Shown here one piece after another: positions 25,081 to 59,685 of a stretch of DNA of 64,000 bases. A program made the position numbers and the translations under genes. Where the stretch lies: the NCBI GenBank assembly GCA_008363385.1, contig RHKY01000005.1, positions 18,254 through 82,253 of the forward strand. The letters are read 5' to 3'. A model generated the notes under the pieces. That model was not told the DNA's origin and ran no database searches. It worked only from the letters and a program-made list of their open reading frames with translations. Numbering within the stretch: the stretch's first letter is position 1; each line of letters opens with the position of its first letter. The stretch comes from Acidobacteriota bacterium (GTDB lineage: Bacteria; Acidobacteriota; Thermoanaerobaculia; UBA5066).

Positions 25081-25092
25081 CTCCTCCGCTCC

Positions 25093-30028: not shown

Positions 30029-30112
30029 GGAGCCTCTCCTGGCGGGACCGGACCCTCCCCGCACACGGCGGGGCGGCCGGGCCGTCCTGTCGGGTTCGTC
30101 GCGCGGGGTGTT

Positions 30113-30128: not shown

Positions 30129-30177
30129 TCGGGCGCCGTGCCGGCGCCGCCGCAGCAGCCCGTTGCCGTGTCGTGTC

Positions 30178-36643: not shown

Positions 36644-36739
36644 ATCGCGTCGACCCGAATCGTGCGAATCGCCCGAACCCCGCCGATCCGGCTGGCGCGG
36701 ATCTTGTTCTTACGGCGCGGGACACCAGGAGGGCCACGC

Positions 36740-38992: not shown

Positions 38993-38993
38993 G

Positions 38994-39548: not shown

Positions 39549-39555
39549 GGCCGCG

Positions 39556-40524: not shown

Positions 40525-40537
40525 AGAGGTGAGCCCG

Positions 40538-41080: not shown

Positions 41081-42264
41081 GCGGCTCCCTCTTCCCCGTC
41101 TACGCCCGCGACCTCTTCGGACACGGCTGGGGCCTCGTCGCCGGGACGCTCATCGGGATGGCCTTCGGGTTCGTCCTGGAGCGGGCCGGCTTCGGGCGCG
41201 CCCGGAACCTCGCCGCGCAGTTCTACCTGACCGACACGCGCGTCCTGAAGGTGATGTTCTCGGCGATCGTCACGGCCATGGTCGGCCTCGCCCTCCTGTC
41301 GGGCCTGGGCCTCGTCGACCTGACGCTCCTGACGATCCCCGAGACGTTCCTCTGGCCGCAGCTCGTGGGGGGCCTCCTCCTCGGCGTCGGCTTCATCGTC
41401 TCGGGCTACTGCCCGGGGACCGGAGTCGTCGCCGCGGCCTCCGGGAACCTGGACGGGGCCGCGAGCCTCCTCGGCGTGGCGGCCGGGTCGCTCGCCTTCG
41501 GCCTGGTCTACGCGCCGCTCGAGTCGTTCTACCTGAGCGGGTCGATGGGGGTCGTCACGCTCCACGGCGCGCTCGGCGTCCCGATGGCCGTCGTGGCCGC
41601 GGGCGTCGTGGCCATGGCCGTCGGCGCGTTCCTGGGCGGCGAGGCGCTGGAGCGGGTCTTCGCCAGGCGCGCCGGCCTCGTGCCGCCGGCCTCGCCTCGG
41701 GTCGTGAAGACCCGCGTCTTCGCCGGCTTCGCCGCCGTCGCGGGGCTCGCCCTCCTCGCCCTCGCCCTCCCGCGGAAGCCCGTCGAGGTCGCCGCGCGCG
41801 TCCCGGACCGGGTCGACGCGGTCGCCCTCGCGCGGAAGCTCGTCGCGGACCCGCAGGGCGTCTGGCTCCTCGACCTGCGCCCCGAGGGGACGAAGGACGT
41901 CGCCCGGATCCCGGGTGCGATACCGCTCCCCGCTGGCGACGCCGCGGGCACGTTCGCCGCGGGCCTCGCCCCGACCCGGACGCTCGTCGTCTACGCCGAG
42001 GGGGACCCGGTGGCTCTCCCGGCCGGTGTCCTCGCCTACCGCGGCCCGGTCTCCGTCCTCGTCGGCGGCTACGCCGCGTGGCAGGCCGGCGTCCTGACGG
42101 CGCCCGTTCCCCCCGCCGAGGCGACGCCGGTGCGGATCGCCGAGTTCGAGGCGCGCCGCGCCCTCCACTCGCGCTTCACCGGCGCCGTCACCGAGGCTCC
42201 GAAGCTCGTCGTCCGGCCCGTTTCCTCCGCCCCCGCCGCTCCGAAGAAGGGCGGCGGCTGCTGA
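41077..42264 (+). CDS. YeeE/YedE-family half-protein fused to a rhodanese-like domain
   Basis: The ATG overlaps the upstream stop (ATGA). VSGYCPGTGVVAAASG signature. The C-terminal LLDLRPEGTKDVARIPGAIPLP...LVVYAEGDPVALPAG...VGGYAAWQ has a rhodanese fold with Ala at the usual catalytic Cys position. The protein ends in KKGGGC. Confidence 0.8.
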   Translation: MSGSLFPVYARDLFGHGWGLVAGTLIGMAFGFVLERAGFGRARNLAAQFYLTDTRVLKVMFSAIVTAMVGLALLSGLGLVDLTLLTIPETFLWPQLVGGLLLGVGFIVSGYCPGTGVVAAASGNLDGAASLLGVAAGSLAFGLVYAPLESFYLSGSMGVVTLHGALGVPMAVVAAGVVAMAVGAFLGGEALERVFARRAGLVPPASPRVVKTRVFAGFAAVAGLALLALALPRKPVEVAARVPDRVDAVALARKLVADPQGVWLLDLRPEGTKDVARIPGAIPLPAGDAAGTFAAGLAPTRTLVVYAEGDPVALPAGVLAYRGPVSVLVGGYAAWQAGVLTAPVPPAEATPVRIAEFEARRALHSRFTGAVTEAPKLVVRPVSSAPAAPKKGGGC

Positions 42265-42367
42265 AGACCTGAAACGCCGGCCGGCCGGAGGGGCCGGGCG
42301 GCGGACCGAACCCGTCCAGATCGAACCCGGCACGCCCCGACCGGGCGCGCCCCATGGAGAGTGTGTG

Positions 42368-43615
42368 ATGCCGAAGAAACTCCTGGCGCTCCTCGCCGTC
42401 GCCCTGGTCGCGGCCGTGCCCGCGCTCGCGACGAACGGCTACTTCTCGCTCAGCTACGGCACCCCCTACAAGGGGATGGCCGGCGCCGGGCAGGCGCTGC
42501 ACCTGAACACGATGGCCAGCGCCACCAACCCCGCGACGATCGCCTTCGTCAAGGGCTACGACGTCAGCTTCGCCGCCTTCAACCCGAACCGCGGGTACAC
42601 CGTGACCGGGAACCCGTCCGGGTACCCCGGCACGTTCGGCCTCGCGCCCGGGACGTACGAGAGCGACACGTCGGCGTTCCTGATCCCCGGGCTCTCCGGC
42701 GCCTGGCACCTCTCGGAGAGGTTCCACCTCGGCGTGGCCATCTACGGCAACGGCGGGATGAACACCGACTACCCGAACCCGGTCTTCGGGCAGGCGCCGG
42801 TCGGCGTCAACCTGACGCAGGCCTTCCTCGCCCCCTCGGTCGCCTTCGAGCTGTCGAAGGACCACGCGATCGGCGTCTCGGTGATCGGGGCGTGGCAGCA
42901 GTTCGAGGCGAAGGGGCTGGGCGCCTTCGCGATGTTCTCCTCGAACCCGGCGGCGCTGACCGACAACGGCAAGGACACCTCCACCGGCCTCGGCGGGAGG
43001 ATCGGCTACCACGGGCACGTCACGGAGTGGCTCGCCCTCGGCGCCTCGTACCAGACCGAGATCAAGATGAGCGAGTTCGACGAGTACGCCGGCCTCTTCG
43101 CCGAGCAGGGGGACTTCGACATCCCGGCGACGTGGGCGGTCGGGATCGCCGTGATGCCCGCGAAGGGCTGGACGATCGCGGCCGACGTCCAGGAAATCTA
43201 CTACAGCAAGGTGGCCGCCATCGGGAACCCGATGCTCCCGAACCTGATGCAGGCCCCGCTCGGCTCGGACAACGGCGCCGGCTTCGGCTGGAAGGACGTC
43301 ACCGTCTTCAAGCTCGGGGTCCAGTGGGAGGCGAGCGAGACCTGGACGTTCCGCGCCGGCTACGCCCACGCCGACCAGCCGGTCCCCGAGAGCGAGGTCC
43401 TCTTCAACATCCTCGCCCCCGGCGTCATCCAGGACCACGTCACCGTCGGCCTCACGACGCTCCTCTCGAAGAAAGCCGCGCTCCACTTCGCCCTGATGCG
43501 CGCCTTCTCCAACTGCGTCGAGGGCCCCAACCCCCTCGAGGCCCCCGGCCAGCAGCGGATCGACCTGAAGATGGACCAGTGGGAGGCCGAGCTCGGCCTC
43601 TCCTACGGCTTCTGA
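42368..43615 (+). CDS. Outer-membrane FadL/OmpP1/TodX-family channel
   Basis: GGAGAG RBS and signal peptide KKLLALLAVALVAAVPALA. YKGMAGAGQALHLNTMASATNPATIAF hatch motif. The C-terminal end is ...ELGLSYGF. Confidence 0.8.
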   Translation: MPKKLLALLAVALVAAVPALATNGYFSLSYGTPYKGMAGAGQALHLNTMASATNPATIAFVKGYDVSFAAFNPNRGYTVTGNPSGYPGTFGLAPGTYESDTSAFLIPGLSGAWHLSERFHLGVAIYGNGGMNTDYPNPVFGQAPVGVNLTQAFLAPSVAFELSKDHAIGVSVIGAWQQFEAKGLGAFAMFSSNPAALTDNGKDTSTGLGGRIGYHGHVTEWLALGASYQTEIKMSEFDEYAGLFAEQGDFDIPATWAVGIAVMPAKGWTIAADVQEIYYSKVAAIGNPMLPNLMQAPLGSDNGAGFGWKDVTVFKLGVQWEASETWTFRAGYAHADQPVPESEVLFNILAPGVIQDHVTVGLTTLLSKKAALHFALMRAFSNCVEGPNPLEAPGQQRIDLKMDQWEAELGLSYGF

Positions 43616-43773: not shown

Positions 43774-44793
43774 TCAGCCGCGGGGCCGCGGTGACGGTGC
43801 TCCGGCCCGCCCGCCGGCTCGTCGAGCGCGCCTCGCGTGACCGCGAAGCTCGTCTTCCAGCCTTCCCCGGAGCCTCTTCTCCTTCCCGTCGAGGAGCTCG
43901 AGGCCCTGGTTCGCCAGGGCGGATGCCCGGGACGGGCGCACCCCCAACCGGTCGGAGATCTCCGCGGCGGGCGCCAGCGCCCAGCGGCGCAGCGCGCCGG
44001 CGACCAGCGCCCGCTGCCGCGCGAGCAGACGACGCCGTTCGACCAGGTCGCCGGCGGAGACGCCCAGCGCCGCCGTGACGCGGTCGAAGACGACGTCGAC
44101 GCTCGGGCGGACCGGCTCTCGCTGCGCGCGTGGGATGCCCGGCGAGAGGCTCCGGCCTGAGGCGACGCCGCTCCAACGAGCGGCGAAGTCCTCCGACCCG
44201 AGGTAGATCTGAGATCGCACCTCTCCCCAGGGCCGGTACTCCCCCCGCAGCCCGTCGGCCACGAAGGCCCGATACTTCCGCCGCGCCTCCCTCTCGTCGT
44301 GGGCGAACTGCGCGAGCGTCCAGGCGAGATCGAGCCAGCCCGGCGGCCTCACCAGCCCTGCCGTCGCCCCGAAGCTGCTCCACGGCCACGCCGCCGCGGT
44401 GGCGCAGACTCCGGCCCGGACCGGGTTCAGGACGGCGTACCGGACCAGCTCCAGGAGGTGGGACTCCTTCTCGACGAGGACCGCCTTGAACCGACCCTGG
44501 AAGAGGTGCCCGACTCGGCCGTGGCGGCGGTTGAAGAACTGCGTGTAGACCCCGTTTAGGTACGCCATCCCGCGGGAGAGCGTCGGCTCCGGCGTCTCCA
44601 GCAGCAGGTGGTAGTGGTTCCCCATCAGGACGTACGCGTGGAGCCGCCAGCGGAAGAGGCCGACGGTGCGAGCCAGGACCGCGAGGAACCGTTCGCGGTC
44701 CCCGTCGTCGCGGAAGACGTCCGCCCGCTCGTTCCCTCGCGACGTGACGTGCCAGATCGCCCCGGCGTGGTCGATTCTGAGAGGACGTGCCAT
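43774..44793 (-). CDS. Y1 (HUH) transposase, RAYT/IS200-like, with DnaA-C-like HTH tail
   Basis: HUH motif GNHYHLLLE and catalytic-Tyr region LVRYAVLNPVRAG. The C-terminal RALVAGALRRWALAPAAEISDRLGVRPSRASAL is HTH-like. Confidence 0.85.
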   Translation of the reverse strand: MARPLRIDHAGAIWHVTSRGNERADVFRDDGDRERFLAVLARTVGLFRWRLHAYVLMGNHYHLLLETPEPTLSRGMAYLNGVYTQFFNRRHGRVGHLFQGRFKAVLVEKESHLLELVRYAVLNPVRAGVCATAAAWPWSSFGATAGLVRPPGWLDLAWTLAQFAHDEREARRKYRAFVADGLRGEYRPWGEVRSQIYLGSEDFAARWSGVASGRSLSPGIPRAQREPVRPSVDVVFDRVTAALGVSAGDLVERRRLLARQRALVAGALRRWALAPAAEISDRLGVRPSRASALANQGLELLDGKEKRLRGRLEDELRGHARRARRAGGRAGAPSPRPRG

Positions 44794-45007: not shown

Positions 45008-46453
45008 ATGCGGACTCGCTTCGTCAACCTCCGGATCCCCGCCGGCGGGAACGACACCCGCCCCGCCGAGCTCCTCGTCGAGGAGGGCCGGTTCCTCGAG
45101 GTCCTGCCGGCGGGCGCCTCCCGTCCCCCGGCCGGCACGGAGTCGCTGGTGGACCTCGGCGGGCGGCTGGCCCTTCCGGGCGTCGTCGACGGACACGTCC
45201 ACTTCGACGACCCCGGCTTCACCCATCGGGAGAACTTCGAGACCGGGACCCGCGCGGCCGCGGCCGGCGGCGTGACGACGGTCGCCGACATGCCCTGCAC
45301 CTCGCTGCCGCCGGTGACGAGCCGCTCGTCGCTCGAGTACAAGCTGACGGTCGTCCGGCCGAAGGCCCTCGTCGACTTCCTCCTCTGGGGCGGTGTCTCG
45401 GACAACGCCATGGAGCACCCGCGCTGGCGCGCCCGCGTCAAGGAGCTGGTCGACGCGGGGGTCGCGGCCTTCAAGCTCTACCTCCTCTCCGGGATGGACA
45501 CCTACCGGGACCTCACCCCGGCCCAGATGAGGCAGGTCCTCAGGGAGCTGGCCCGGCACGGCGTCCCGGCCGGGATCCACGCCGAGGACCGCGAGGTGGT
45601 CCTCTCCCTGACGTTCGCCGAGATGGCCGAGCACCGGGACGGCCCGCTCGACTACGCCGACTCGCGCCCCAGCGAGGCGGAGACCTTCGCGGTCCGGACG
45701 GTGAGGGACCTCTGCCGCGAGACGGGAGCCCGGGTCCACGTCGTCCACATCGCCTCGGGCGAGGCGCTCGGGGTCGTGGCCCAGGCCCGCGAGGAGGGGC
45801 TCCCCCTCTCCGCCGAGACCTGCCCGCACTACCTCGCCTTCACCCGAGACGACCTCGGACGCCTCGGCGCCCTCCTCAAGACGGCCCCCGTCGTCAAGAG
45901 CGCCGCCGACCGCGAGGCCCTCTGGAAGGGGCTCGCCGACGGGACGCTCCAGCACGTGGCCACCGACCACGCCGCCGGGCAGTGGCCCGAGGAGAAGTCC
46001 GCCCGCTCGATCTGGAACGTCTACGGCGGCGTCCCCGGCGTGGAGACGCTCCTGCCGTTCCTCCTCTCCGAGGGGGTGGCGAAGGGTCGCCTCACGCTCG
46101 AGCGGCTCGTCGAGGTGACCGCCTCGGCCCCCGCCCGCTTCTTCGGGGTCGCCTCGCGGAAGGGGGCGATCGCCCCCGGCCTCGACGCCGACCTGGCCGT
46201 CGTCGACGAGAAGGAGACCTGGACCGTGACCCGAGAGGCGCTCCACAACCTGAACCGGTACACCCCGTTCGAGGGGCACGTCTTCACCGGGCGGGTCCGC
46301 CAGACCTGGCTGCGAGGCGTCCGCGTCTACTCGCGGGCGGACGACGGCAGCGAGTGGTTCGGGACGCCCGGGAAGGGGAGGTTCGTGAGGCGCGAGGCGC
46401 GCTGGACCCTCGGCGCCGAGGCGGAGCCGGCGCTCGCCGAGGTGGCCCGGTGA
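45008..46453 (+). CDS. Cyclic amidohydrolase (dihydropyrimidinase/hydantoinase/allantoinase family)
   Basis: Metal-ligand motifs DGHVHFD, AAFKLYL (carboxylated Lys), IHAED, HVVHIASG and ATDHAA. Confidence 0.8.
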   Translation: MRTRFVNLRIPAGGNDTRPAELLVEEGRFLEVLPAGASRPPAGTESLVDLGGRLALPGVVDGHVHFDDPGFTHRENFETGTRAAAAGGVTTVADMPCTSLPPVTSRSSLEYKLTVVRPKALVDFLLWGGVSDNAMEHPRWRARVKELVDAGVAAFKLYLLSGMDTYRDLTPAQMRQVLRELARHGVPAGIHAEDREVVLSLTFAEMAEHRDGPLDYADSRPSEAETFAVRTVRDLCRETGARVHVVHIASGEALGVVAQAREEGLPLSAETCPHYLAFTRDDLGRLGALLKTAPVVKSAADREALWKGLADGTLQHVATDHAAGQWPEEKSARSIWNVYGGVPGVETLLPFLLSEGVAKGRLTLERLVEVTASAPARFFGVASRKGAIAPGLDADLAVVDEKETWTVTREALHNLNRYTPFEGHVFTGRVRQTWLRGVRVYSRADDGSEWFGTPGKGRFVRREARWTLGAEAEPALAEVAR

Positions 46454-47919
46454 GGCGCGAGGAGGTCCGCGCGCGGGCCGTGGCGCGCTGCCGCGAGCGG
46501 GGCATCCTGATCCCGACCCTCTCCCAGATGCGCGACCCGTCGACCGTCCCCGTCGCCGTGCGCGACTCGCTGCCTCGGGTCGACATGCAGGCGGTCGACC
46601 CGAGGAACCTCTTCCGGATCACCTGGCACAACGACCCGGCAACCGGCGGCTTCGGGCCCGTCAACGTGCTGGAGGTCCCCCGCGAGGTGACCGGGGTGAA
46701 GGCCCGGATCGCGGGCCTCGTCGGGGCGCACTTCCCCACGGGCGCCCACAAGGTCGGCGCGGCCTTCGGTTGCCTCGTCCCGCGGCTGGTGCACGGCGAG
46801 TTCGACCCGACGACGCAGAAGGCCGTCTGGCCCTCGACGGGGAACTACTGCCGCGGCGGCGCCTTCGACAGCGCGCTCCTCGGCTGCACGTCGCTGGCGA
46901 TCCTCCCGAGGGAGATGAGCGCCGAGCGGTTCCGGTGGCTGGAGTCGATCGGGGCCGAGATCCTGGCCACCCCGGGCTGCGAGAGCAACGTCAAGGAGAT
47001 CTTCGACGCCTGCTGGGACATCAAGAAGAACCGCAAGGACTGCGTCGTCTTCAACCAGTTCGAGGAGTGGGGGAACTACCTCTGGCACCGCGGCGTGACG
47101 GCCCCCGCCGCCGAGGAGGCGTTCGCCTCCCTCGCCTCCCCCCGCTCGCGGATGGCGGCCTGGGTCGGGGCGACCGGCTCGGCCGGCACGCTGGCCGCCG
47201 GCGACTCCCTGAAGGCGCGCTTCCCGGGCTGCCGGATCACCGCCGCCGAGGCGCTCCAGTGCCCGACGCTGCTGCGGAACGGGTTCGGCGGGCACCGGAT
47301 CGAGGGGATCGGCGACAAGCACGTCCCGTGGATCCACAACGCACGGAACACCGACCTGGTCGCGGCGATCGACGACGAGGCGGCGATGCGCGTCTTCCGC
47401 CTCTTCAACGAGCCGGCGGGGCAGGAGCTCCTCGTCTCGCGCGGGGCGCCGGCGGCCACGGTCGCCAAGCTCCCGCTCCTGGGGATCTCCTCGGTCGGGA
47501 ACCTCCTCGCCGCGGTCAAGACGGCGCGTTGGTTCGAGATGGACGAGGACGACGTCCTCCTGACGAGCTTCACCGACTCGGCCGAGATGTACCGGTCGCG
47601 GCTCGCCGAGATGACGGAGGCTCTCGGGCCGTACGGGGCCACGGAGGCGGCCGTCGACCTGGAGCGCCGCCTCCTCGGGACGACGACCGACACTCTCCGC
47701 GAGCTGACGCACGCGGACCGCAAGGCCCTCCACAACCTGAAGTACTTCACCTGGGTCGAGCAGCAGGGGAGGACGGTCGAGGAGCTCGACGCCCTCTGGA
47801 GCCCGCGGTTCTGGGAGGACCGCGTGGCCGAGCTGCCGGAATGGGACGCCGCCATCGCGGCGTTCAACGCGGAGACCGGCGTCCTCGACGCGGTCTCCGG
47901 GAGGTTCGCGACCGCATGA
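46450..47919 (+). CDS. PLP-dependent enzyme, tryptophan-synthase-beta fold (PALP family), atypical long form
   Basis: HFPTGAHKVGAAFG (candidate PLP Lys) and GATGSAGTLAAG (phosphate loop). The GTG start overlaps the upstream stop (GTGA). Confidence 0.75.
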   Translation: MRREEVRARAVARCRERGILIPTLSQMRDPSTVPVAVRDSLPRVDMQAVDPRNLFRITWHNDPATGGFGPVNVLEVPREVTGVKARIAGLVGAHFPTGAHKVGAAFGCLVPRLVHGEFDPTTQKAVWPSTGNYCRGGAFDSALLGCTSLAILPREMSAERFRWLESIGAEILATPGCESNVKEIFDACWDIKKNRKDCVVFNQFEEWGNYLWHRGVTAPAAEEAFASLASPRSRMAAWVGATGSAGTLAAGDSLKARFPGCRITAAEALQCPTLLRNGFGGHRIEGIGDKHVPWIHNARNTDLVAAIDDEAAMRVFRLFNEPAGQELLVSRGAPAATVAKLPLLGISSVGNLLAAVKTARWFEMDEDDVLLTSFTDSAEMYRSRLAEMTEALGPYGATEAAVDLERRLLGTTTDTLRELTHADRKALHNLKYFTWVEQQGRTVEELDALWSPRFWEDRVAELPEWDAAIAAFNAETGVLDAVSGRFATA

Positions 47920-49157
47920 GCACGACCACTCTCCCCGCCGTCGGACAGGAGGCCCTCGCCGCGGCGTCGGCCCGCCAGGACGACGCCGTCCGCTTCCTCC
48001 GCGACCTGATCGCCATTCCCGCCGAGAGCGGGAAGGAGGAGGCTCGCTGCCGGCGGGTCCGCGAGGAGTACGAGAAGCTCGGCTTCGACGAGGTCTGGTT
48101 CTCGGGCCTCGGGAGCGTCGTGGCCCGGGTCGGGAGCGGGCCGCTCCGGATCCTGATGGACGGGCACATCGACTGCGTCGGCGTCGGGGACCCGAGCGCC
48201 TGGAGGTACGACCCGTTCCGCGGGAAGCTCGAGGACGGGAAGGTCTACGGGCGCGGGGCCGTCGACGAGCTGCCGGCGATCTCGGCCATGGCGTACGGCG
48301 CGAAGCTCCTGGCGGAGCGCGGCGTCCCGGAGGACGTCACGGTCTACCTCTGCGCCTCGGTGATGGAGGAGGACTGCGACGGGCTGCCGCTCCTGCAGCT
48401 GATCGAGCGGGAGGGGCTCCGCCCCGACGTCTGCGTCCTCGGCGAGCCGACCGACCTGAACGTCTACCGCGGCCACCGGGGCCGCATGGAGATGACGATC
48501 ACGACGAAGGGGGTCTCGGCGCACGGCGCCCACTCCGAGCGGGGGGTCAACGCGGTCTACCGGATGGCGAAGGTCGTCCGCGAGGTGGAGGAGCTGAACG
48601 GCCGCCTCGCCTCCGACCCGTTCCTCGGCAAGGGCTCGATCATCGTCTCGTACATCTCGTGCAAGAGCCCGTCCCTCTGCGCGGTCCCCGACGAGTGCAC
48701 CGTCCACCTCGACCGCCGGCTGACGGTCGGCGAGACCGTCGAGACGGCGATGGACGAGGTCCGCGGCCTGCCGTCCGTCAAGGCGTGCGAGGCCGTCGTG
48801 ACGCTCCTCGGCTACGACGCCGTCGGCTGGAACGGCGCCCGGGCGTACCAGGAGAAGTACTTCCCCACCTGGGTCCTGCCCGAGTCCCACCCGCTGGTCG
48901 CCGGGACCGTCGAGGCGGTCGAGACCGTCCTCGGCCGGACGCCCGCCGTCTCCCGCTGGAGCTTCTCGACCAACGGCGTGGCGACGATGGGACGCCTCGG
49001 GATCCCGACGGTCGGTTTCGCCCCGGGCCTCGAGGAGCTCTCGCACTCCACGGGCGAGTGGGTGTCGGTCGCCGACCTCGTCAAGGCGACCGCCGTCTAC
49101 AGCCTGATCCCCGCCGCCCTGGCCGCCCGAAAGGACGACCTCCTCCGCACGCGCTGA
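47916..49157 (+). CDS. ygeY: YgeY-family M20 peptidase/deacylase
   Basis: FLRDLIAIPAESG, MEEDCDGL, YRGHRGRMEM, YFPTWV and FSTNGVATMGRLGIPTVGFAPG. These are colinear with E. coli YgeY as I remember it. ATGA overlap with the upstream gene. Confidence 0.85.
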   Translation: MSTTTLPAVGQEALAAASARQDDAVRFLRDLIAIPAESGKEEARCRRVREEYEKLGFDEVWFSGLGSVVARVGSGPLRILMDGHIDCVGVGDPSAWRYDPFRGKLEDGKVYGRGAVDELPAISAMAYGAKLLAERGVPEDVTVYLCASVMEEDCDGLPLLQLIEREGLRPDVCVLGEPTDLNVYRGHRGRMEMTITTKGVSAHGAHSERGVNAVYRMAKVVREVEELNGRLASDPFLGKGSIIVSYISCKSPSLCAVPDECTVHLDRRLTVGETVETAMDEVRGLPSVKACEAVVTLLGYDAVGWNGARAYQEKYFPTWVLPESHPLVAGTVEAVETVLGRTPAVSRWSFSTNGVATMGRLGIPTVGFAPGLEELSHSTGEWVSVADLVKATAVYSLIPAALAARKDDLLRTR

Positions 49158-49174
49158 AGACCGGAGCCTTCGAG

Positions 49175-50314
49175 ATGCCGACCGCCGCCCTCCCCTCGAC
49201 CGACCTCGACGCCGCCGTCCTCGACCGCCTCCTCGGTCGGAGCCTCCTCCTGACGGACGACTTCTCCCCGGCCGAGCTGGACGCGCTCCTCTCCGTCGCC
49301 TTCCGGCTCGCCGCGCTCGACCGGGCCGGGAAGAAGACGCCGCTCCTCCCGGACGAGCTGGCCTACGCCCTCTTCTTCGACAACTCGACGCGGACGAAGT
49401 CGGCCTGGGCCGGCGCCGCAGCGCGCCTCGGGATGCAGCCGGTCATCGTCGACGGCTCCTCGACGCAGGTCTCCCACGGCGAGACGGCCGTGGAGACCGG
49501 GGCGATGCTCGGGATGAACGCGCACGCCCTCGGGGTGAGGCACGACCTGATCCTGGGCGAGGGGAACGCGTTCATGCGCGACGTCAAGAAGGGGATCGAC
49601 GACTACCTGGCCGCGACGAAGGACCCGCGGAAGGTGCCGGTCGTCAACCTCCAGTGCGACGTCGACCACCCGACGCAGACGCTCGCCGACCTCTGCTGGC
49701 TCCGGGAGAGCTTCCCGGAGGGCCTCGCCGGGAAGAAGGTCGCCGTCTCCTGGGCCTACTCCCCCAGCTACGCCAAGCCGCTCTCGGTCCCGCAGGGCCT
49801 GGTCATGCTGCTGACCCGCTTCGGCGCGCACGTCACGCTCGCCCACCCCGAGGGGTACCGGCTGATGGAGCCCTGCCTCGAGTCGGCCCGGCGCCACGCC
49901 GCCGAGTCGGGCGGGTCGTTCCGGACGACGGGCTCGATGGACGAGGCGTTCGAGGGGGCGGTCGCCGTCTACCCGAAGAGCTGGGGCCCGTACGACCTGA
50001 TGCTGGAGCGGGTGGACGCCAACCGGAAGCGCGACGCGAAGCGGATGACCGAGATCGAGCAGGCCGCCCTCGCCCGGAACGCCGGGCACAGGGACTGGAT
50101 CTGCGACGAGCGCCGGATGGGGCTGACGAAGGGGGGCGACGCCCTCTACATGCACTGCCTCCCGGCCGACATCGGGGCCGAGGTCTCGCCCGGCGTGATG
50201 GCGAAGCACACCGTGAACGTGGCCCGCGAGGCGAACTGGAAGGTCCACGTGATCATGGCGCTCCTGGCCACCGCCAAGGTGCCGAAGCTCGCGGACGCCC
50301 TCGCGGCGCTCTGA
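49175..50314 (+). CDS. ygeW: YgeW-type (knotted) carbamoyltransferase
   Basis: FFDNSTRTKS, SHGETAVET, NLQCDVDHPTQTLADLCWLRE, WAYSPSYAKPLSVPQG, TLAHPEGY and YMHCLPADI. Confidence 0.85.
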   Translation: MPTAALPSTDLDAAVLDRLLGRSLLLTDDFSPAELDALLSVAFRLAALDRAGKKTPLLPDELAYALFFDNSTRTKSAWAGAAARLGMQPVIVDGSSTQVSHGETAVETGAMLGMNAHALGVRHDLILGEGNAFMRDVKKGIDDYLAATKDPRKVPVVNLQCDVDHPTQTLADLCWLRESFPEGLAGKKVAVSWAYSPSYAKPLSVPQGLVMLLTRFGAHVTLAHPEGYRLMEPCLESARRHAAESGGSFRTTGSMDEAFEGAVAVYPKSWGPYDLMLERVDANRKRDAKRMTEIEQAALARNAGHRDWICDERRMGLTKGGDALYMHCLPADIGAEVSPGVMAKHTVNVAREANWKVHVIMALLATAKVPKLADALAAL

Positions 50315-50324
50315 GCCGCGTCCC

Positions 50325-51542
50325 TCAGAAGACGAGGAGGGCCTTCACCGACCCGCCGCCGAAGCTCCCCCCCTGGATCGCCTGGGACAGGAGGAGCTCG
50401 ATCGACATCGCAGGCGCGAAGGTGAAGAGCGCCTTGAGGTGCGCCTTGTCGATGAAGTCGTCCTCCTCCCGTGCGGGCAGCGCCCCGCTGCCGGTCACCT
50501 CGCGCCGGGCGTCCTGGGAGCTCCCGAGGTAGCCGAGCCTCAGCTCCACGACCCTCGACAGCCTCAGCTCCCCCTCGACGCCGAAGAGGACCGATCCCAG
50601 GTCGTACCTCCCCTCGGGGTCGTCCGGGGAGGCGAAGTCGTCCCGCTGCTCGGCGTAGCCCAGGAGCGCCGAGACGCCCCACTTCCCCAGCTGCCGGCGG
50701 CAGGAGACGACCGCGCGGCCCCAGGAGCGGTCGAGGGCGTACCGGCCGCCGCCGGCCTCCGTCTGGTCCCTCTCGAGCCTGGCCCCCGTCAGGCGCAGCC
50801 CGGCCGACCAGTCGCCACGGACGTGACCGACCGCGGCGTCGCCGAACCTCTGTGAACCGCGGGTCGTCCGGCCGGTGGCTCCGTCCGTGGCCGCGTACTC
50901 GAGCCCGAAGTCGACCGTCCCGTGAACGCGCCAGGAGCCGGCCTCGTACGAGCCGTCGAGGAGGATGCGCCAGGGGTCCCGGTCGAACCGGACCTCGTCG
51001 TCCGTCTTCTCGTCCCAGATGACCCGCTCGTCGACCACGAGGACCTCCAGGGCGTTGCGGGCCTTCGGCGCCCCGAGCCTCACGCCGATCCCCATCGACG
51101 TGACCTCCTTGTCGAACGCCGGCCAGCCGGTCAGGATCGGGCCCCAGCCCGAGCCCAGGTGGAAGACGGCGTCGAACCGCTGGTCGGAGACCTCGAACCG
51201 GCCGTCCTGGTAGTCCCGCCGGTCGTAGCGCATCTGGAGCCACTTGGCCGGGAAGAGGTTCACGGCGATCTGGCTGTTGACGTAGAGCTCGGTCCCGGTC
51301 GTGGAGCCGAACTCGCCGAACAGCCCGTTCCCCGAGTACCTCAGCGCGGCCCACTCGGAGCGCCAGCGCGGGTCGGCGGCGTACTGGAGCAGGTGCAGCT
51401 CCAGGCGGTCGATGAACTGCCCGCCCTCGACCTGCTCGAGGAAGTCGGCCTCCGAGGCCCAGAAGAGCGGGTCCGGGACCTCCCCGGCCCAGCCCGGCCG
51501 GACTGCGAGGAGGAGAACGAGGCCGGCGACCGCGGCCCTCAT
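50325..51542 (-). CDS. Outer-membrane beta-barrel protein of unknown family
   Basis: Start at MRAAVAGLVLLLAVRPGWAG (signal peptide). Alternating strand pattern. The C-terminus is ...SVKALLVF. The longer ORF up to 51770 has junk-like N-terminal sequence. Confidence 0.65.
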   Translation of the reverse strand: MRAAVAGLVLLLAVRPGWAGEVPDPLFWASEADFLEQVEGGQFIDRLELHLLQYAADPRWRSEWAALRYSGNGLFGEFGSTTGTELYVNSQIAVNLFPAKWLQMRYDRRDYQDGRFEVSDQRFDAVFHLGSGWGPILTGWPAFDKEVTSMGIGVRLGAPKARNALEVLVVDERVIWDEKTDDEVRFDRDPWRILLDGSYEAGSWRVHGTVDFGLEYAATDGATGRTTRGSQRFGDAAVGHVRGDWSAGLRLTGARLERDQTEAGGGRYALDRSWGRAVVSCRRQLGKWGVSALLGYAEQRDDFASPDDPEGRYDLGSVLFGVEGELRLSRVVELRLGYLGSSQDARREVTGSGALPAREEDDFIDKAHLKALFTFAPAMSIELLLSQAIQGGSFGGGSVKALLVF

Positions 51543-51609
51543 CGCCGTCGATGTTAGCCCCGCGGCCGGGTCTCGGCGCGCCGGTTCCCGGAGGGCTACG
51601 ATCCGGGAC

Positions 51610-52863
51610 GTGGCTCGCTTCGTCTTCGCCTGCAACGAGTGCTCCGCCCGGCTCGAGGAGGAGCGCTCCCTCACCGTCTGCCCCTCGTGCGCGAGGCTCC
51701 AGGAGCCGGGCGGCCCGACGCGCGGCGTCCTCCGCGTCGAGCTCCTCGAGCCTCCGCGCGCCTGGCCCACGACGCCCCTCGACGGCCCCGAGGCGCTCGC
51801 GGCGTTCCTGCCCCTCGAAGGCCCCGACTCCCTCTTCGGCTACCCCGTCGGCGGGACGCCGCTCCTCCCGGCGCCTGGCCTGCGCCGGCGCCTGGGGATG
51901 CCGCGCCTCTTCGTGAAGGACGACTCGCGGAACCCGAGCGGGTCGACGAAGGACCGGGCCTCCCTCCTCGTCGTCGCCAAGGCGCGCGAGTACGGGTACG
52001 ACACCGCGGCCGCCGCCTCGACCGGGAACGCCGCGACGGCGCTCTCGGCCGTCGGCGCTGCGGCGGGGGTCCGGACGGTCGTCTTCGTCCCGGCCTCGGC
52101 CCCGCTCGCCAAGCTCGTCCAGATGGCCAGCTACGGCGCCACGCTCGTCCCCGTCGACGGGACGTACGACCAGGCCTTCGAGCTCTCGCTCGCCGCCTGC
52201 GCGCGGTTCGGCTGGTACAACCGGAACACGGCGCTGAACCCGTTCACGGTCGAGGGGAAGAAGACGGCCGCCCTGGAGATCGCGAAAGACCTCCTCCCCG
52301 AGGAGCCCGACGCCGTCGTCGTCCCGACGGGGGACGGCGTGATCCTCGCCGGCGTCGCCAAGGGGTTCCGGGACCTGGTGGCCGGCGGCCTCCTCTCGCG
52401 AACGCCCCGCCTGATCGCCGTCCAGCCGGAGGGATCGGGGCCGATCGCGCGGGCGCTGAAGTCGGGGGCGGACGGGATCACGCCGGAGCCCGGGGCGGCG
52501 AGCGTCGCCGACAGCCTCGTCGTCGCGGCCCCGCGCAACGCGATCCTCTGCCTGAAGGAGGTCCGCGCCTCGGGGGGGGCCGGCGTCCTCGTCGGCGACG
52601 AGGAGATCCTCGACGCCCTCTCGCTCCTGGCGCGTTCCGCCGGTGTCTTCGCCGAGCCGGCCGCGGCCGCCGGCCTGGCCGGCCTCCTCGCCGCCCGCGA
52701 GGAGGGTCTCGTCGACCCCGGCGAGCGCGTGGTCCTCCTCGTCACCGGGACCGGCCTCAAGGACGTGGGCGCGGCCCGCCGCAGAGTGACGATCCCCCCG
52801 GCGGTCCTCCCCACCCTCGAGGCCGTCGAGGCGGTCCTCCGCGAGGCTCCGGCGGCGCGGTAG
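51610..52863 (+). CDS. Threonine-synthase-like PLP enzyme with N-terminal zinc ribbon
   Basis: CNEC...CPSC ribbon. RNPSGSTKDRASL (PLP Lys), ASTGNAA and PTGDGVILAG. The GTG start at 51610 is the first plausible start. Confidence 0.8.
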   Translation: MARFVFACNECSARLEEERSLTVCPSCARLQEPGGPTRGVLRVELLEPPRAWPTTPLDGPEALAAFLPLEGPDSLFGYPVGGTPLLPAPGLRRRLGMPRLFVKDDSRNPSGSTKDRASLLVVAKAREYGYDTAAAASTGNAATALSAVGAAAGVRTVVFVPASAPLAKLVQMASYGATLVPVDGTYDQAFELSLAACARFGWYNRNTALNPFTVEGKKTAALEIAKDLLPEEPDAVVVPTGDGVILAGVAKGFRDLVAGGLLSRTPRLIAVQPEGSGPIARALKSGADGITPEPGAASVADSLVVAAPRNAILCLKEVRASGGAGVLVGDEEILDALSLLARSAGVFAEPAAAAGLAGLLAAREEGLVDPGERVVLLVTGTGLKDVGAARRRVTIPPAVLPTLEAVEAVLREAPAAR

Positions 52864-54472: not shown

Positions 54473-54642
54473 CGCGGCCGCGCGGGCGGGCGCGGAGGTA
54501 TCCTAGGCGGGTCGGCGCGGCGCTCCGGCCTCCCGATGTCTTCGCGGCCTCCCGACCCCCCGCACGCCCGCGGGCGCTTCCTCGATCGGTTGCGCCGCCG
54601 GTGCGGGAGCACCCGGCGGGACGGCCCGGTCCTCCCCGGGCC

Positions 54643-54867
54643 TCAGCCCTTCCCGCCGAGGAGCTTCGTGATCTCGCCCGGGTCCGGGAACCGCCCGGTC
54701 GCGTGCTTGGAGAAGACGAGCTTCCCGTCCGCGGCGACGTCGAAGACGCCGCCGGACCCCGCGATCAGCTTCGCCCTCATCCCGAGGGCCTTCTCGAGCT
54801 CGGCCGCCAGACCGGCGGCCCTGGGCTCGTAGTTTCAGACGGTGCAGTAGGTGATCTCGACCTTCAC
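54643..54867 (-). CDS. SelW/Rdx-family selenoprotein (CxxU), in-frame TGA at 54835-54837
   Basis: GGGAGGG RBS, then GTG. The product is MKVEITYCTVUNYEPRAAGLAAELEKALGMRAKLIAGSGGVFDVAADGKLVFSKHATGRFPDPGEITKLLGGKG, 74 aa. It matches the Rdx pattern: IxYCxxUxY...G.F.V..dG.lvfSK...G.FP. A SECIS-like hairpin follows the TGA. Confidence 0.85.
54795..54829 (-). ncRNA. Bacterial SECIS-like mRNA hairpin
   Basis: In the mRNA, the upper stem is GGCCGCC-GGUCU-GGCGGCC, 7 bp, starting 14 nt after the UGA. The lower stem is CGAGC/GCUCG. The apical loop GGUCU resembles the E. coli fdhF SECIS loop as I recall it. Confidence 0.75.
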
Positions 54868-54901
54868 GAGTCCCTCCCGCGCCGATTCTAGAGGTGACGA
54901 C

Positions 54902-57397
54902 ATGAAAGCGACCTCCTCGCCGACCTTCCTGACCCCCGCTCAGCTCCTCTCCGAGATGGAGCGCTGCCTGTTCTGCGAGGAGAAGCCGTGCAAGGAGGCC
55001 TGCCCGGCCGACTGCTCGCCGGCCGACTTCATCATGGCCGCGCGGGTGGGCGAGCCGTCCGACTGGCGGCGCGCCGCGGGGCTGATCCTCTCGGAGAACC
55101 CGCTCGGCGGCGTCTGCGGGGCCGTCTGCCCCGACCGGCACTGCATGGCCGCCTGCTCGCGGAAGACGTTCGACCGGCCGGTCCTGATCCCCGAGATCCA
55201 GGCCCAGGTCGTGGAGAACGCCAAGGAGACGGGCGTGATGCCCGCGTTCCGCCACGCGGCCCCGACCGGGAAGAAGGTCGCGGTCGTCGGCGCGGGCCCG
55301 GCGGGCCTCGGCGCCGCGGCTCTCCTCGCCCAGCAGGGCCACGCGGTCACGATCTTCGAGGCCGGGGACCGGCCGGGCGGGATGTGCCTCTTGATCCCGG
55401 ACTCCCGGCTCCCGAAGCGGGTCCTCTTCTCGGACATCGACTTCCTGCTGGGCCTGGGCGACATCCGCCTGGAGACGCACGCGCGGGTGACCGAGCCGGT
55501 GGAGCTCCGCTCCGCCGGCTTCGACGCCGTCCTCGTCACGACGGGGCTCGACCAGCCGCTGACGCTCGGGATCCGCGGCGAGGAGCTGGCGGTCCCGTGG
55601 GCCCGCCTCCTCTTTGACCCGCCGTCCGCCCGCCTGAAGGGGAAGACGGTCGCCGTGATCGGCGGCGGGGCCGTCGCCGTCGACTGCGCCGTGACGGCGC
55701 GCTCCCGCGGGGCGGCGCGGGTCGAGCTCTTCGCGCTCGAGAGCCTCTCGGAGATGCCGCTGACGGCCAAGGAGCGGAAGGAGCTCCTCGACGCCGGCGT
55801 CGAGGTGACGGGCCGGACGCGGGTGACCGAGATCCGGAGGAAGGACGGCTCGGTCGACGGGATCGTCACGCTGAAGGTGGAGCTGCCGCGCGGGCGGAAG
55901 TTCCACCCGTCGGCCGTGGCCGACGTCGGCGGGACACGCCTCGTCCGCCCCGACGTGAACGCGGTGGTCCTCGCCATCGGGGCCCGCCCGTCGGCCCGCT
56001 CGCGCGGGAAGGCCCGCTTCTACGCCGGGGACATGGAGAACGGCCCGACGACGGTCGTCGAGGCGGTGGCCGCGGGGAAGAACGCGGCCACCCTCGTCGA
56101 CGCCTACCTCGACGGCGAGCGGAAGGTCCTGATCCAGAAGCGGACGAAGGCGCGCGTCCCGCTCCCGGGCCTCGTGAAGACGCCGGTCCCGCTCGACGCC
56201 GACTTCTTCGGCCGCCCGATCCCCTCGCCGTTCCTCCTCTCGGCCGCCCCGCCCACCGACGGCTACGACCAGATGCGGAAGGCCTACGAGGCCGGCTGGG
56301 CCGGCGGCGTGATGAAGACTGCCTTCGACGGCCTCCCGATCCACATCCCGGCCCGGTACATGTTCGCGTTCACGCCGGCGACGTACGGCAACTGCGACAA
56401 CGTGTCCGGCCACCCGCTGGACCGCGTCCGCCGCGAGGTGGAGCGGCTGGTGACGGAGTTCCCGGACCGGCTGACGCTCGCCTCCACCGGCGGCAGCGTG
56501 ACGGGCGACGACGAGGCCGACCGGCGCTCCTGGCAGTCGAACACGCGGAAGCTCGAGAGCTGCGGCGCCATGGGGATCGAGTACTCCCTCTCCTGCCCGC
56601 AGGGGGGCGACGGGACGAAGGGGGACATCGTCTCGCAGGACGCCGAGCTGACCGCGAAGATCGTCGGCTGGGTGCTGGAGGCGGGGAGGGCGGACGTCCC
56701 GAAGCTCTTCAAGCTGACGGGGGCCGTCACCGCGATCCGGCCGATCGTGGCGGCCGTGAAGGCGGTCCTCGAGAAGCACCCGGGGAAGAAGGCCGGCGTG
56801 ACCCTGGCGAACACGTTCCCGACGCTCGCCTTCCGGAAGGGGGAGAAGCCGTCGTGGGAGGAGGGGGTCGTCGTCGGGATGAGCGGCGAGGGGGTGGCGC
56901 CGATCTCGAACCTGACGCTCGCCAACGTGGCCGGGAGCGGCGTCACGGTCTCGGGGAACGGCGGGCCGATGGACTACAAGGCCGCCGCCCACTTCCTGGC
57001 GCTGGGCGCCTCGACCGTCCAGTTCTGCACGGTCGTCATGAAGCACGGCTACGGGATCGTCCACGACCTCCACTCGGGCCTCTCGCACCTGATGGCCGAC
57101 CGGGGCTACCGGAGCGTCGCCGAGCTCGTCGGCTGCGCCCTCCCCCACCCCGTCACCGGCTTCATGGAGCTGCCGTCGAAGAAGCCGATCTCGGCGGTGG
57201 ACCGCGACGTCTGCGAGCACTGCGGCAACTGCACCCGCTGCCCGTACCTGGCGATCTCGCTCGACCACGAGCTCGTCCCGGTCACCGACCCGGCGCGGTG
57301 CGTCGGCTGCTCGATCTGCGCGCAGAAGTGCTTCTCCGGGGCGCTCTTCATGCGGGACCGGACGCCGCGCGAGCTGGCCGCGCTGGTGGAAGCGTGA
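54902..57397 (+). CDS. Fused GltD/PreT-like + PreA/DPD-like oxidoreductase (YgfK/dihydropyrimidine-dehydrogenase-like)
   Basis: N-terminal Fe-S Cys clusters. FAD/NAD motifs VAVVGAGPAGLGAA and VAVIGGGAVAVDCA. A DHOD/DPD-like TIM barrel. C-terminal ferredoxin CEHCGNCTRCP...CVGCSICAQKC. Confidence 0.85.
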   Translation: MKATSSPTFLTPAQLLSEMERCLFCEEKPCKEACPADCSPADFIMAARVGEPSDWRRAAGLILSENPLGGVCGAVCPDRHCMAACSRKTFDRPVLIPEIQAQVVENAKETGVMPAFRHAAPTGKKVAVVGAGPAGLGAAALLAQQGHAVTIFEAGDRPGGMCLLIPDSRLPKRVLFSDIDFLLGLGDIRLETHARVTEPVELRSAGFDAVLVTTGLDQPLTLGIRGEELAVPWARLLFDPPSARLKGKTVAVIGGGAVAVDCAVTARSRGAARVELFALESLSEMPLTAKERKELLDAGVEVTGRTRVTEIRRKDGSVDGIVTLKVELPRGRKFHPSAVADVGGTRLVRPDVNAVVLAIGARPSARSRGKARFYAGDMENGPTTVVEAVAAGKNAATLVDAYLDGERKVLIQKRTKARVPLPGLVKTPVPLDADFFGRPIPSPFLLSAAPPTDGYDQMRKAYEAGWAGGVMKTAFDGLPIHIPARYMFAFTPATYGNCDNVSGHPLDRVRREVERLVTEFPDRLTLASTGGSVTGDDEADRRSWQSNTRKLESCGAMGIEYSLSCPQGGDGTKGDIVSQDAELTAKIVGWVLEAGRADVPKLFKLTGAVTAIRPIVAAVKAVLEKHPGKKAGVTLANTFPTLAFRKGEKPSWEEGVVVGMSGEGVAPISNLTLANVAGSGVTVSGNGGPMDYKAAAHFLALGASTVQFCTVVMKHGYGIVHDLHSGLSHLMADRGYRSVAELVGCALPHPVTGFMELPSKKPISAVDRDVCEHCGNCTRCPYLAISLDHELVPVTDPARCVGCSICAQKCFSGALFMRDRTPRELAALVEA

Positions 57398-57419
57398 GGC
57401 GGGACGGGAGGAGGGAGCC

Positions 57420-58751
57420 GTGAGCGAGAGACTCCTGGTCCGGGGCGGGACCGTCGTCACGCTGGGCGAGCCGAACCGGGTCCTCCCGGGGCACGACGTC
57501 CTGTGCGAGGGCGGGCTCGTCGCGCGCGTGGCGCCCTCGGCCGACCTCCCCGAGGAGGGGGTCCGCGTCGTCGACGCCCGCGGGAAGGTCGTCCTCCCCG
57601 GCTTCGTCAACGTCCACATGCACTTCTACTCGACGATGGTCCGCGGCCTCGGCAAGGCCGCCCCGTCGAAGGACTTCGACGAGGTGCTGAAGAACCTCTG
57701 GTGGCGGCTCGACCGCAAGCTGACCGTGGAGGACTGCCGGTACTCGGCCCTCGTCCCGCTGATCGAGGCCGTCCGGCACGGGACGACGACGCTGATCGAC
57801 CACCACGCGAGCCCCTTCGCCGCGCGCGGCTCGCTCGCGGCGATCGCGGACGCCGTCACGCAGGTCGGGCTGCGCGCCTCGCTCTGCTACGAGGTCTCCG
57901 ACCGGGACGGGGAGAAGGTGGCCCAGGACGGGCTCGACGAGAACGTCGACTGGCTGAAGTCCTGCGCGGCGCGGGGCGGGAACCGGCTGAAGGGCCTCTT
58001 CGGCCTCCACGCCGCGTTCACGATCGGGGACGCGACGCTCGCCAAGGCCGCCGAGCTGGGGCGCTCGCTCGGGGCCGGTTTCCACGTCCACGTCGCCGAG
58101 GCCCGCTCGGACCAGGAGCACAGCGTGGCGACGCACGGCCGGCGCGTCGTCGAGCGGCTCCACGAGCACGGGATCCTGGGGCCGAGGACGATCGCGGCCC
58201 ACTGCGTCCACGTCGACGCGCGCGAGCGGGCGCTCCTGGCCCAGACCGGGACCGCGGTCGCCCACAACCCGCAGTCGAACCTGAACAACGCGGTCGGCGT
58301 CGCGGACCTCCCCGCGCTGGCCCGGGAGGGCGTCCTCCTCGGCCTCGGGACCGACGCGATGACGGTGAACATGCTGGAGGAGGTCCGCGCCGCCCTCTTC
58401 GCCCAGCACCTGGGGCGCGAGAACCCGAGCGCGGCGTGGGGCGAGGTGACGACCGCCCTCCTCCGGGGGAACGCGGCCATCGCCAACCGGTACTTCGACC
58501 CGCCCGTCGGCGAGGTGCGCGAGGGCTTCTGCGCCGACCTCGCCCTGGTCGACTACCACCCGCCGACCCCGTTCGACGAGGCGACGTTCCAGGGGCACCT
58601 CCTCTTCGGCCTCTCGCAGTCGACCGTCGACACGACGATCGCGGGGGGGAGGGTCCTGATGGAGGGCAAGCGCCTCCTCCTCGACCTCGACGAGGCGGAG
58701 GTGGCGGCCCGCTCGCGCGAGCTGGCCGCGAGGCTCTGGGAGCGCTTCTAG
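57420..58751 (+). CDS. ssnA: SsnA-type aminohydrolase (amidohydrolase superfamily, chlorohydrolase/deaminase branch)
   Basis: LPGFVNVHMHFYS (HxH), HVHVAE, AAHCVH and GLGTDA metal-ligand pattern. Confidence 0.8.
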   Translation: MSERLLVRGGTVVTLGEPNRVLPGHDVLCEGGLVARVAPSADLPEEGVRVVDARGKVVLPGFVNVHMHFYSTMVRGLGKAAPSKDFDEVLKNLWWRLDRKLTVEDCRYSALVPLIEAVRHGTTTLIDHHASPFAARGSLAAIADAVTQVGLRASLCYEVSDRDGEKVAQDGLDENVDWLKSCAARGGNRLKGLFGLHAAFTIGDATLAKAAELGRSLGAGFHVHVAEARSDQEHSVATHGRRVVERLHEHGILGPRTIAAHCVHVDARERALLAQTGTAVAHNPQSNLNNAVGVADLPALAREGVLLGLGTDAMTVNMLEEVRAALFAQHLGRENPSAAWGEVTTALLRGNAAIANRYFDPPVGEVREGFCADLALVDYHPPTPFDEATFQGHLLFGLSQSTVDTTIAGGRVLMEGKRLLLDLDEAEVAARSRELAARLWERF

Positions 58752-58782
58752 GCGCGTCCGCCGCGCGGTCTACCATCGGGCG

Positions 58783-59685
58783 GTGAGGGAGCGCCTCCGC
58801 CCAGCGGTCCTCCTCGCCTTCGCGGCGGTCTGGCTGATCTGGGGCTCGACGTACCTGGCGATCCGGGTCGTCCTGGAGACGCTGCCGCCGTTCACGATGG
58901 CCGGCGTCCGGTTCGTCGCCGCCGGGCTCCTGCTCGGCGCCTTCTCCCTCGCCCGCGGGGCCGCGCGTCCCACGCGGGCGCAGTGGGGCACGGCCCTCGT
59001 CCTGGGCGGGCTCCTCTTCCTCGGCGGGAACGGCGCGGTCGTCTGGGCCGAGCAGCGGATCGCCTCGGGCCTGGCGGCCCTCCTGGTGGCGATCGAGCCG
59101 CTCTGGGTCGTCCTCCTCCAGGCCCGGAGCGGGGCGGGCCGGCCGAGCGCCCGCGCCGTCCTCGGCGTCGTCCTCGGCATCGCCGGCCTCCTCGTCCTGA
59201 TCGGCCCTTGGAACCTCGGCGCCTCGGACCGGGTGGACCTGGCCGGCTCCGTCGTCGTCGTCGCGGGGTCCCTCTCCTGGGCGATCGGGTCGCTGGCGGG
59301 CCGGACCGCGAAGCTCCCGGAGCCTCCCCCGCTCGCCGCCGCCACCCAGATGCTCGCCGGCGGGGCCCTCCTCCTCGTCGCGGGGCTCGCGGCGGGCGAG
59401 CCGGCCCGGGTCGTCTGGAGCGCGGTCTCGCTCCGGTCGGTCCTCGCGCTCGCCTACCTCGCCCTCTTCGGCTCGATCGTCGCCTTCACGGCCTACCTCT
59501 TCCTCCTGCGGCAGGTGAGCCCGGCGCGGGCCTCGACGTACGCCTTCGTCAACCCGGTGGTGGCGGTCGTCCTCGGCGCCTGGCTGGGCGGAGAGCCGCT
59601 GACGCCGCGCCTGCTCGCGGCGGGGGCCCTGATCGTCGGCGCCGTCGTCCTCATCACGCTCGGCGAGCGGGGCGCGAAGGGCTGA
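58783..59685 (+). CDS. EamA/DMT-family transporter
   Basis: Ten hydrophobic helices in two EamA-like halves. Confidence 0.8.
   Translation: MRERLRPAVLLAFAAVWLIWGSTYLAIRVVLETLPPFTMAGVRFVAAGLLLGAFSLARGAARPTRAQWGTALVLGGLLFLGGNGAVVWAEQRIASGLAALLVAIEPLWVVLLQARSGAGRPSARAVLGVVLGIAGLLVLIGPWNLGASDRVDLAGSVVVVAGSLSWAIGSLAGRTAKLPEPPPLAAATQMLAGGALLLVAGLAAGEPARVVWSAVSLRSVLALAYLALFGSIVAFTAYLFLLRQVSPARASTYAFVNPVVAVVLGAWLGGEPLTPRLLAAGALIVGAVVLITLGERGAKG

Follow-up and report, generated by a model that had tools for sequence, protein, structure and literature searches.

Prokaryotic SelW-like selenoproteins, with a CxxU motif and a bacterial SECIS element, were described in 2005 and formed the most abundant selenoprotein family in the Sargasso Sea data (PMC1088965). 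SelW-like proteins have also been catalogued in many bacteria, and few Cys homologues are reported in the prokaryotic family (PMC1794560). Our results indicate that the window, that is, the whole 64-kb stretch of DNA that was analysed, contains a further member. This gene, referred to here as selW, very probably does encode a SelW-like protein with Sec and has a functional SECIS.

The selW reading frame, its product and its relatives

The frame of selW, on the minus strand, opens with GTG 54867-54865 and closes with the stop 54645-54643; the TGA at 54837-54835 is its sole interruption. Read-through of this codon gives a product of 74 aa, MKVEITYCTV-U-NYEPRAAGLAAELEKALGMRAKLIAGSGGVFDVAADGKLVFSKHATGRFPDPGEITKLLGGKG, in which the GTG start is read as Met and a CTVU motif is present. 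A 74-aa read-through protein with CTVU, covered by no ORF, had been proposed from the sequence, and both its coordinates and its sequence proved exact. The mechanical ORF list splits the gene into two pieces (54835-54903, 22 aa; 54643-54780, 45 aa), and public gene callers record selW solely as the 45-aa fragment. The features of the locus are the following.

54643 to 54867, minus strand: predicted gene for a SelW-like selenoprotein (Rdx family), with a GTG start, 74 codons before the stop and Sec at codon 11
54872 to 54878, minus strand: putative Shine-Dalgarno sequence GGGAGGG of selW, read from the sequence and kept in sister strain L088
54835 to 54846, minus strand: predicted CTVU redox motif (TGC ACC GTC TGA), aligned with CTQC of 2fa8 and 3dex
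54835 to 54837, minus strand: predicted Sec codon UGA (codon 11), identical in 7 assemblies
54802 to 54820, minus strand: predicted SECIS core GGCCGCC-GGUCU-GGCGGCC, with a 7-bp G+C stem (54820-54814 with 54808-54802) and the loop GGUCU at 54813-54809
54795 to 54829, minus strand: extended hairpin including a 5-bp lower stem (54829-54825 with 54799-54795), a predicted fold specific to the window sequence and near relatives
54592 to 54642, minus strand: two G+C-rich hairpins right after the selW stop (54642-54623 and 54622-54592), predicted fold -44.3 kcal/mol, z -1.81

The G+C content of the window is 73.6%, and spurious long ORFs are abundant in it. The codon-position G+C of selW (0.68/0.49/0.98) is typical of genuine genes in the window. 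The GGAGG core of the Shine-Dalgarno sequence is spaced 5 nt from the GTG. The ATG at 54903 was rejected as an alternative start, given that every homologue begins at the position of GTG 54867. Moreover, in L088 this ATG is out of frame through a 1-nt indel, and an in-frame TAG lies upstream of the GTG; the indel and the upstream TAG therefore place the start of selW at GTG 54867. The TGA is no sequencing error. Six other sequencing runs yielded six contigs of this organism that match the window at 100% identity throughout the gene; only the 45-aa fragment is annotated on them by gene callers. L088 likewise keeps the in-frame TGA. Neither a promoter scan nor a consensus terminator scan around selW gave a match, as expected at 74% G+C. 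The hairpin pair that follows the stop codon has no U-tract, and may be the transcript end of selW in a high-G+C organism.

In profile and structure searches, the Sec of the product was modelled as Cys. The product scored 70.4 bits with Pfam Rdx PF10262 (cut-off 22.6), 95.1 bits with NCBIfam NF041051, 'SelT/SelW/SelH family (seleno)protein' (cut-off 88), and 53.4 bits with NCBIfam TIGR02174 (cut-off 34.2). Sequence matches were found to the bacterial Rdx structures 2fa8, 3dex, 2oka, 2obk, 2ojl and 2p0g, with E-values down to 1.6e-8, and to human MIEN1. All six bacterial structures have Cys at the Sec position. The motif C8-T-V-U11 comes directly after KVEITY, which corresponds to strand beta1.

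The fold was assessed on P0003, a natural Cys homologue 60% identical to the selW product, and not on the window protein. The AlphaFold model of P0003 (pLDDT 88.9) has the element order beta1-CxxC-alpha1-beta2-beta3-beta4-alpha2, with the CxxC motif between E3-8 and H14-28. Its TM score is 0.85-0.91 against 2fa8, 2obk, 2ojl, 2oka, 2p0g and 3dex and 0.72 against mouse SelW, thioredoxins being more distant. Taken indirectly through this homologue, the product of selW is predicted to have a thioredoxin-like fold of the type beta1-alpha1-beta2-beta3-beta4-alpha2.

A comparative set of 80 SelW-like loci, with relatives at 45-78% identity, was obtained by scanning a single genome for each species. 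The closest relatives belong to Acidobacteriota (Holophagales, Thermoanaerobaculia). Other loci come from Gemmatimonadota, Desulfobacterota, Myxococcota, Planctomycetota, Methylomirabilota, Eisenbacteria and Krumholzibacteriia, and further ones from a Dehalococcoidales MAG, a Fibrobacteraceae MAG and Gammaproteobacteria, so that the set covers about ten phyla. At the Sec position, 79 of the 80 loci have TGA, and motifs are kept on either side of it (I-x-Y-C-x-x upstream, N-Y-E-P-R-A-A-G-L-A downstream). The homologues do not simply end at this codon, and conservation continues beyond it. The sole locus without TGA (L079, codon CTC) has an unalignable context and was treated as a spurious alignment. 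Cys forms of the family, such as P0003, exist but are rare, in agreement with the literature on SelW-like proteins (PMC1794560). A separate observation concerns P0004, a full-length SelW-like homologue of 74 aa from an ENA contig, which has Arg (CVRR) at the Sec/Cys position. A single-base change from TGA to CGA or AGA would explain this residue; P0004 is perhaps a copy that has been inactivated, or a variant read.

With scores above all three curated cut-offs and a TGA conserved in nearly the whole set, the original prediction, a selenoprotein gene of the SelW/Rdx type that an in-frame UGA conceals, is borne out. The consequence for annotation is direct: the full-length product is absent from the public protein collection that was searched, in which only the 45-aa fragment is recorded, and most SelW relatives in this collection are likewise 5'-truncated.

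Divergence from a sister strain and putative Sec decoding

The contig of sister strain L088 (WBZR01002824.1) is 98.55% identical to the window over 9.1 kb, with 132 mismatches in all and a background of 1.26%. The last 150 nt of selW hold 20 of these 132 mismatches (13%, p about 8e-15), about 10 times the local background, and the differing stretch was noted at window positions 54665-54795. Non-synonymous changes make up about 16 of the 20. Over the last 50 codons pN/pS is about 1.5, indistinguishable from neutral (p = 0.62), and constraint on the C-terminal part is not demonstrated at the short timescale of the sister strains. On the other hand, the first 72 nt of the gene, with the start, CxxU, UGA and SECIS, hold 0 mismatches (Fisher p = 0.0003 versus the remaining 150 nt). 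The comparison shows the putative recoding module to be the most constrained part of selW. A second cluster of mismatches with L088, 19 in number, was seen at 55200-55400, within the reductase gene.

If Sec decoding had been lost in this organism, the TGA would terminate translation after 10 codons, and selW would be a decaying remnant yielding nothing functional, or just the 45-aa fragment from ATG 54780. The mismatch density and the pN/pS of the last 50 codons are compatible with such decay, as is the fact that public gene callers report the 45-aa ORF alone. The Sec machinery is also absent from the 64-kb window: selA, selB, selD and tRNA-Sec were not found in it, and it contains no tRNA at all. 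Nevertheless, decay would be even along the gene, and the absence of mismatches in the first 72 nt together with the divergence beyond them argues against a pseudogene; the Shine-Dalgarno sequence shares this complete identity between the two strains. No frameshift and no second stop occurs in selW of either strain, and the family-invariant residues (GGVFDV, DG, VFSKH, GRFP) are all kept. Furthermore, the SECIS of selW is identical to the family consensus and retains in its loop the codon GGT, which makes up only 1.5% of the 1351 Gly codons in the window's own genes. Taken together, these data make a decaying remnant improbable.

A functional, Sec-encoding selW implies that the organism would decode selenocysteine. 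A crude coding-frame test over every TGA gave no other selenoprotein candidates in the window; its sole outcome was a stop between two adjacent genes. Two other genes were considered and rejected as selenoproteins, namely the [NiFe] hydrogenase large subunit, which has Cys in its DPCFGC motif, and an HdrA-like gene, which ends normally.

Several other gene groups were observed in the window. A redox cluster at 19932-32726, on the minus strand, comprises HdrC-, HdrB- and HdrA-like genes followed by NuoE-, NuoF- and NuoG-like genes and MvhD, and continues with the small and large subunits of a [NiFe] hydrogenase (DPCFGC, with Cys) and a HycI protease. Upstream of this cluster are genes for a sigma-54 activator and a histidine kinase. 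The cluster looks like an electron-bifurcating hydrogenase/heterodisulfide-reductase module. The region 36737-43612 encodes a PhsA/PhsB/PhsC-like molybdopterin reductase of the thiosulfate/polysulfide type, and then a split YeeE/YedE-type sulfur transporter (PF04143), which weakly resembles the selenium-linked YedE/FdhT, and a FadL-like outer-membrane protein. On the minus strand at 8776-14391 there is an ORF of ~1870 codons with many NHL/teneurin-type beta-propeller repeats and a fibronectin type III domain, flanked by Ser/Thr kinase genes at 6378-7904 and 14516-16066.

The neighbouring uric-acid genes

The gene cluster of the reductive uric-acid pathway has recently been characterised (PMC12507026; bioRxiv 10.1101/2025.04.24.650524). 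The genes around selW, by their family assignments, are the following.

45017 to 46450: cyclic amidohydrolase (TIGR03178, 383 bits versus a cut-off of 358)
46444 to 47913: PALP enzyme (Pfam PF00291)
47946 to 49154: YgeY (477 bits versus 321)
49166 to 50311: YgeW-like (370 bits, under the cut-off of 453)
51802 to 52863: PALP enzyme (Pfam PF00291)
54902 to 57397, plus strand: predicted UacX-type PreT/PreA-fusion reductase, 831 aa (PF14691, PF07992, PF01180)
57420 to 58751: SsnA (514 bits versus 444)
58783 to 59685: EamA exporter (NCBIfam and Pfam)

The genes at 45017-52863 and 54902-59685 are predicted to be a variant of the reductive uric-acid (2,8-dioxopurine/'yanthine') cluster, in a genome of about 74% G+C that has Acidobacteriota as its nearest relatives. 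A correspondence of the surroundings to the ygeW-ygeY-ssnA purine cluster of E. coli had been proposed, and it is supported by SsnA and YgeY, both above their curated cut-offs. The identification of the neighbouring gene as YgfK did not stand: TIGR03315 gives 152 bits against a cut-off of 835, and the GltD-like part alone matches. It has been reported that a PF01180 domain defines the alternative reductase 'UacX' (PMC12507026), and the domain composition of the gene at 54902-57397 fits a UacX-type PreT/PreA fusion. Acidobacteriota are not among the cluster-carrying phyla listed in the SsnA survey of the same study (PMC12507026). A gene for a REP-associated/Y1 tyrosine transposase was also noted at 43867-44775 on the minus strand, just upstream of the purine-catabolic genes.

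The gene selW (GTG 54867) and the reductase gene (ATG 54902) are divergent, with 34 nt between the starts (54868-54901) and a Shine-Dalgarno sequence for each. With so short a spacing, the promoter of each gene would have to be located within the other, which would give transcripts that overlap in antisense. The closeness of the two starts, the presence of the same arrangement in the sister strain and the assignment of the cluster to a reductive purine pathway (PMC12507026) could suggest, as originally predicted, that SelW acts as a redox partner of its neighbours, that is, a partner dedicated to the UacX-type reductase and the SsnA uric-acid module. However, relatives of the reductase, SsnA, YgeY, YgeW and the amidohydrolase were found near SelW in 0 of the 80 SelW-like loci (fetched flanks up to 6 kb). 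In 79 metagenomic loci with a reductase relative, SsnA was its neighbour in 66 and SelW in 1, this single locus being that of L088. The three closest SelW loci adjoin unrelated genes (dCTP deaminase, AsnC regulator, AbgT, MFS transporter, NAD kinase). When the ORFs from the 80 loci were clustered in search of conserved SelW neighbours, only clade-level Gemmatimonadales synteny and antisense artefacts were obtained.

The known biochemistry of the pathway can be added to this. Selenium enters it through selenium-dependent molybdenum hydroxylases (bioRxiv 10.1101/2025.04.24.650524), and no selenocysteine requirement has been described for it. The reaction in vitro requires just the reductase, SsnA and NAD(P)H (PMC12507026). 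No Mo hydroxylase of the XdhD/DOPDH type was found in the window. The head-to-head arrangement of selW and the reductase gene is real but lineage-specific, and a dedicated partnership is very unlikely. An equally slight chance is given to the proposal that SelW has been recruited, in this acidobacterial lineage, head-to-head with the UacX-SsnA operon as a low-potential selenol/thiol partner, or is co-regulated with it through the antisense overlap, the fast and mostly non-synonymous divergence of its C-terminal two-thirds between the sister strains being then an adaptation to the partner. The position of selW beside uric-acid catabolic genes looks rather like a chance outcome of gene order, confined to the lineage.

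The predicted SECIS hairpin and the known selenoproteins

Published constraints for bacterial SECIS elements (PMC13188914, Fig. 2A) are an upper stem of 4-16 bp that carries an apical loop of 3-9 nt, G in one of the first two loop positions, usually then G or U, a distance of 16-37 nt from the UGA to the apical loop, and a free energy of -7.5 kcal/mol or lower. The selW hairpin falls within all four of them in a check of the bSECIS type: it has a 5-nt loop on a 7-bp stem and G at loop positions 1-2, the loop GGUCU begins 21 nt after the UGA, and the free energy of the 19-nt hairpin is -14.9 kcal/mol. The same loop is found at the same distance in 61 of the 80 homologues, and 65 of the 80 pass when a contiguous-stem test is used.

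In an ungapped alignment of the 80 sequences, 92.9% of the cells of the upper helix are paired. Compensatory double changes were found at pair 27-39 in 15 sequences (C-G to U-A, G-C or A-U) and at pair 24-42 in 12 sequences. The observed covariation score was reached by 0 of 500 shuffles, all slid registers scored lower, and RNAalifold independently finds a 5-bp core of the helix. Synonymous sites are frozen as well: Ala17 is GCC in 77 of 77 cases, Gly18 is GGT in 65 of 72 and never GGC, and Leu19 is CTG in 75 of 78. For comparison, the invariant Gly at codon 39 is encoded across the 80 loci by GGC (49), GGG (16), GGT (8) and GGA (7). This covariation and this synonymous-site conservation point to selection on the SECIS as RNA. 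The significance of single-sequence folding depends on the stretch chosen in DNA of 74% G+C (z of -0.79 over 66 nt and of -3.18 over the 49 nt that begin with the UGA), and such folding was not used as evidence; we regard the comparative evidence for the predicted element as decisive, unlike this ambiguous folding.

With respect to the hairpin as first described, a 7-bp GC stem closing a GGUCU loop and a 5-bp lower stem, the upper part is present as proposed and is conserved, and the lower part is not. The lower helix (helix 1) is paired in just 61.6% of cells over the 80 sequences, its pair 15-49 forms in 24 of the 80, and the 5-bp lower stem lies outside the conserved element. A search of Rfam, at the gathering threshold and at a permissive E-value, gave no SECIS-type match, a matching family seeming to be absent from Rfam. 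That the hairpin is a mere by-product of coding an alanine-rich helix (GCC GCC GGx CUG GCG GCC being self-complementary), with no RNA function and the UGA read through or suppressed in another way, is scarcely credible: the Ala codons of the stem are G+C-rich anyway, the 66-nt fold is unremarkable and conservation of the AAGLAA protein sequence alone would preserve much of the sequence, but third positions are frozen beyond the need of the amino acids while the other invariant Gly is mostly GGC, the stem changes are two-sided, and the loop pentamer is that of the experimentally defined fdhF SECIS.

A functional SECIS in selW would work by the established bacterial mechanism. Translation would initiate at GTG 54867, SelB with Sec-tRNA(Sec) would be recruited to the UGA at 54837-54835 by the hairpin 21 nt downstream, and Sec would be inserted there in place of termination. 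Going by the fold of the 60% identical Cys homologue, the product would be a small thioredoxin-like protein with its C8-x-x-U11 centre between beta1 and alpha1, most likely cycling between selenol/thiol and selenenylsulfide as a thiol-dependent oxidoreductase. The SECIS would double as the coding sequence for the start of helix alpha1 (AAGLAA), and because of this both peptide and codons are frozen. In this respect selW offers a clean case of dual coding, in which one stretch of nucleotides serves both as hairpin and as code for the first turn of helix alpha1, with synonymous sites frozen across about ten phyla. It leaves the knowledge of SelW-like proteins unchanged and gives no real lead on the adjoining uric-acid pathway.

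The SECIS of E. coli K-12 fdhF reads ...GGUUGCAGGUCUGCACC..., with the arrangement UGA-N18-GGUCU. The description of the selW hairpin as fdhF-like is justified in that the loop pentamer GGUCU is identical in both. In both, the reading frame runs through the loop as GGU CUG (Gly-Leu), and the element is within the coding region directly downstream of the UGA. The two elements differ in that the loop of selW begins 21 nt after the UGA and that of fdhF 18 nt, i.e. one codon further in selW; in that the upper helix of fdhF has a bulged, unpaired U whereas the upper stem of selW is a perfect 7-bp G+C helix; and in the lower helix, which is not conserved in the SECIS of selW.

The Rdx structures 2fa8 (Atu0228), 3dex (SAV_2001), 2oka, 2obk, 2ojl and 2p0g are of the same family and fold as the selW product, with Cys for Sec and about 80-105 residues. 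Mammalian selenoprotein W (2npb) and MIEN1 (2ljk) have in common with it the thioredoxin-like Rdx fold and CxxU or CxxC (PMC3527542). The identity to these mammalian proteins is low, 22-28% in structural alignments of the P0003 model, and eukaryotic SelW has a 3'-UTR SECIS of an unrelated type. The closest known system is that of the prokaryotic SelW-like selenoproteins (Zhang, Fomenko & Gladyshev 2005, PMC1088965), with which selW shares a length of ~70-75 residues, the N-terminal CxxU, a small hairpin after the UGA with G starting the loop, and the rarity of Cys homologues. The protein belongs to this already described family, and its detection is the correct detection of another member. There is no essential difference between them; the copy in the window is simply one that lies in a genome of ~74% G+C, head-to-head with a uric-acid operon.
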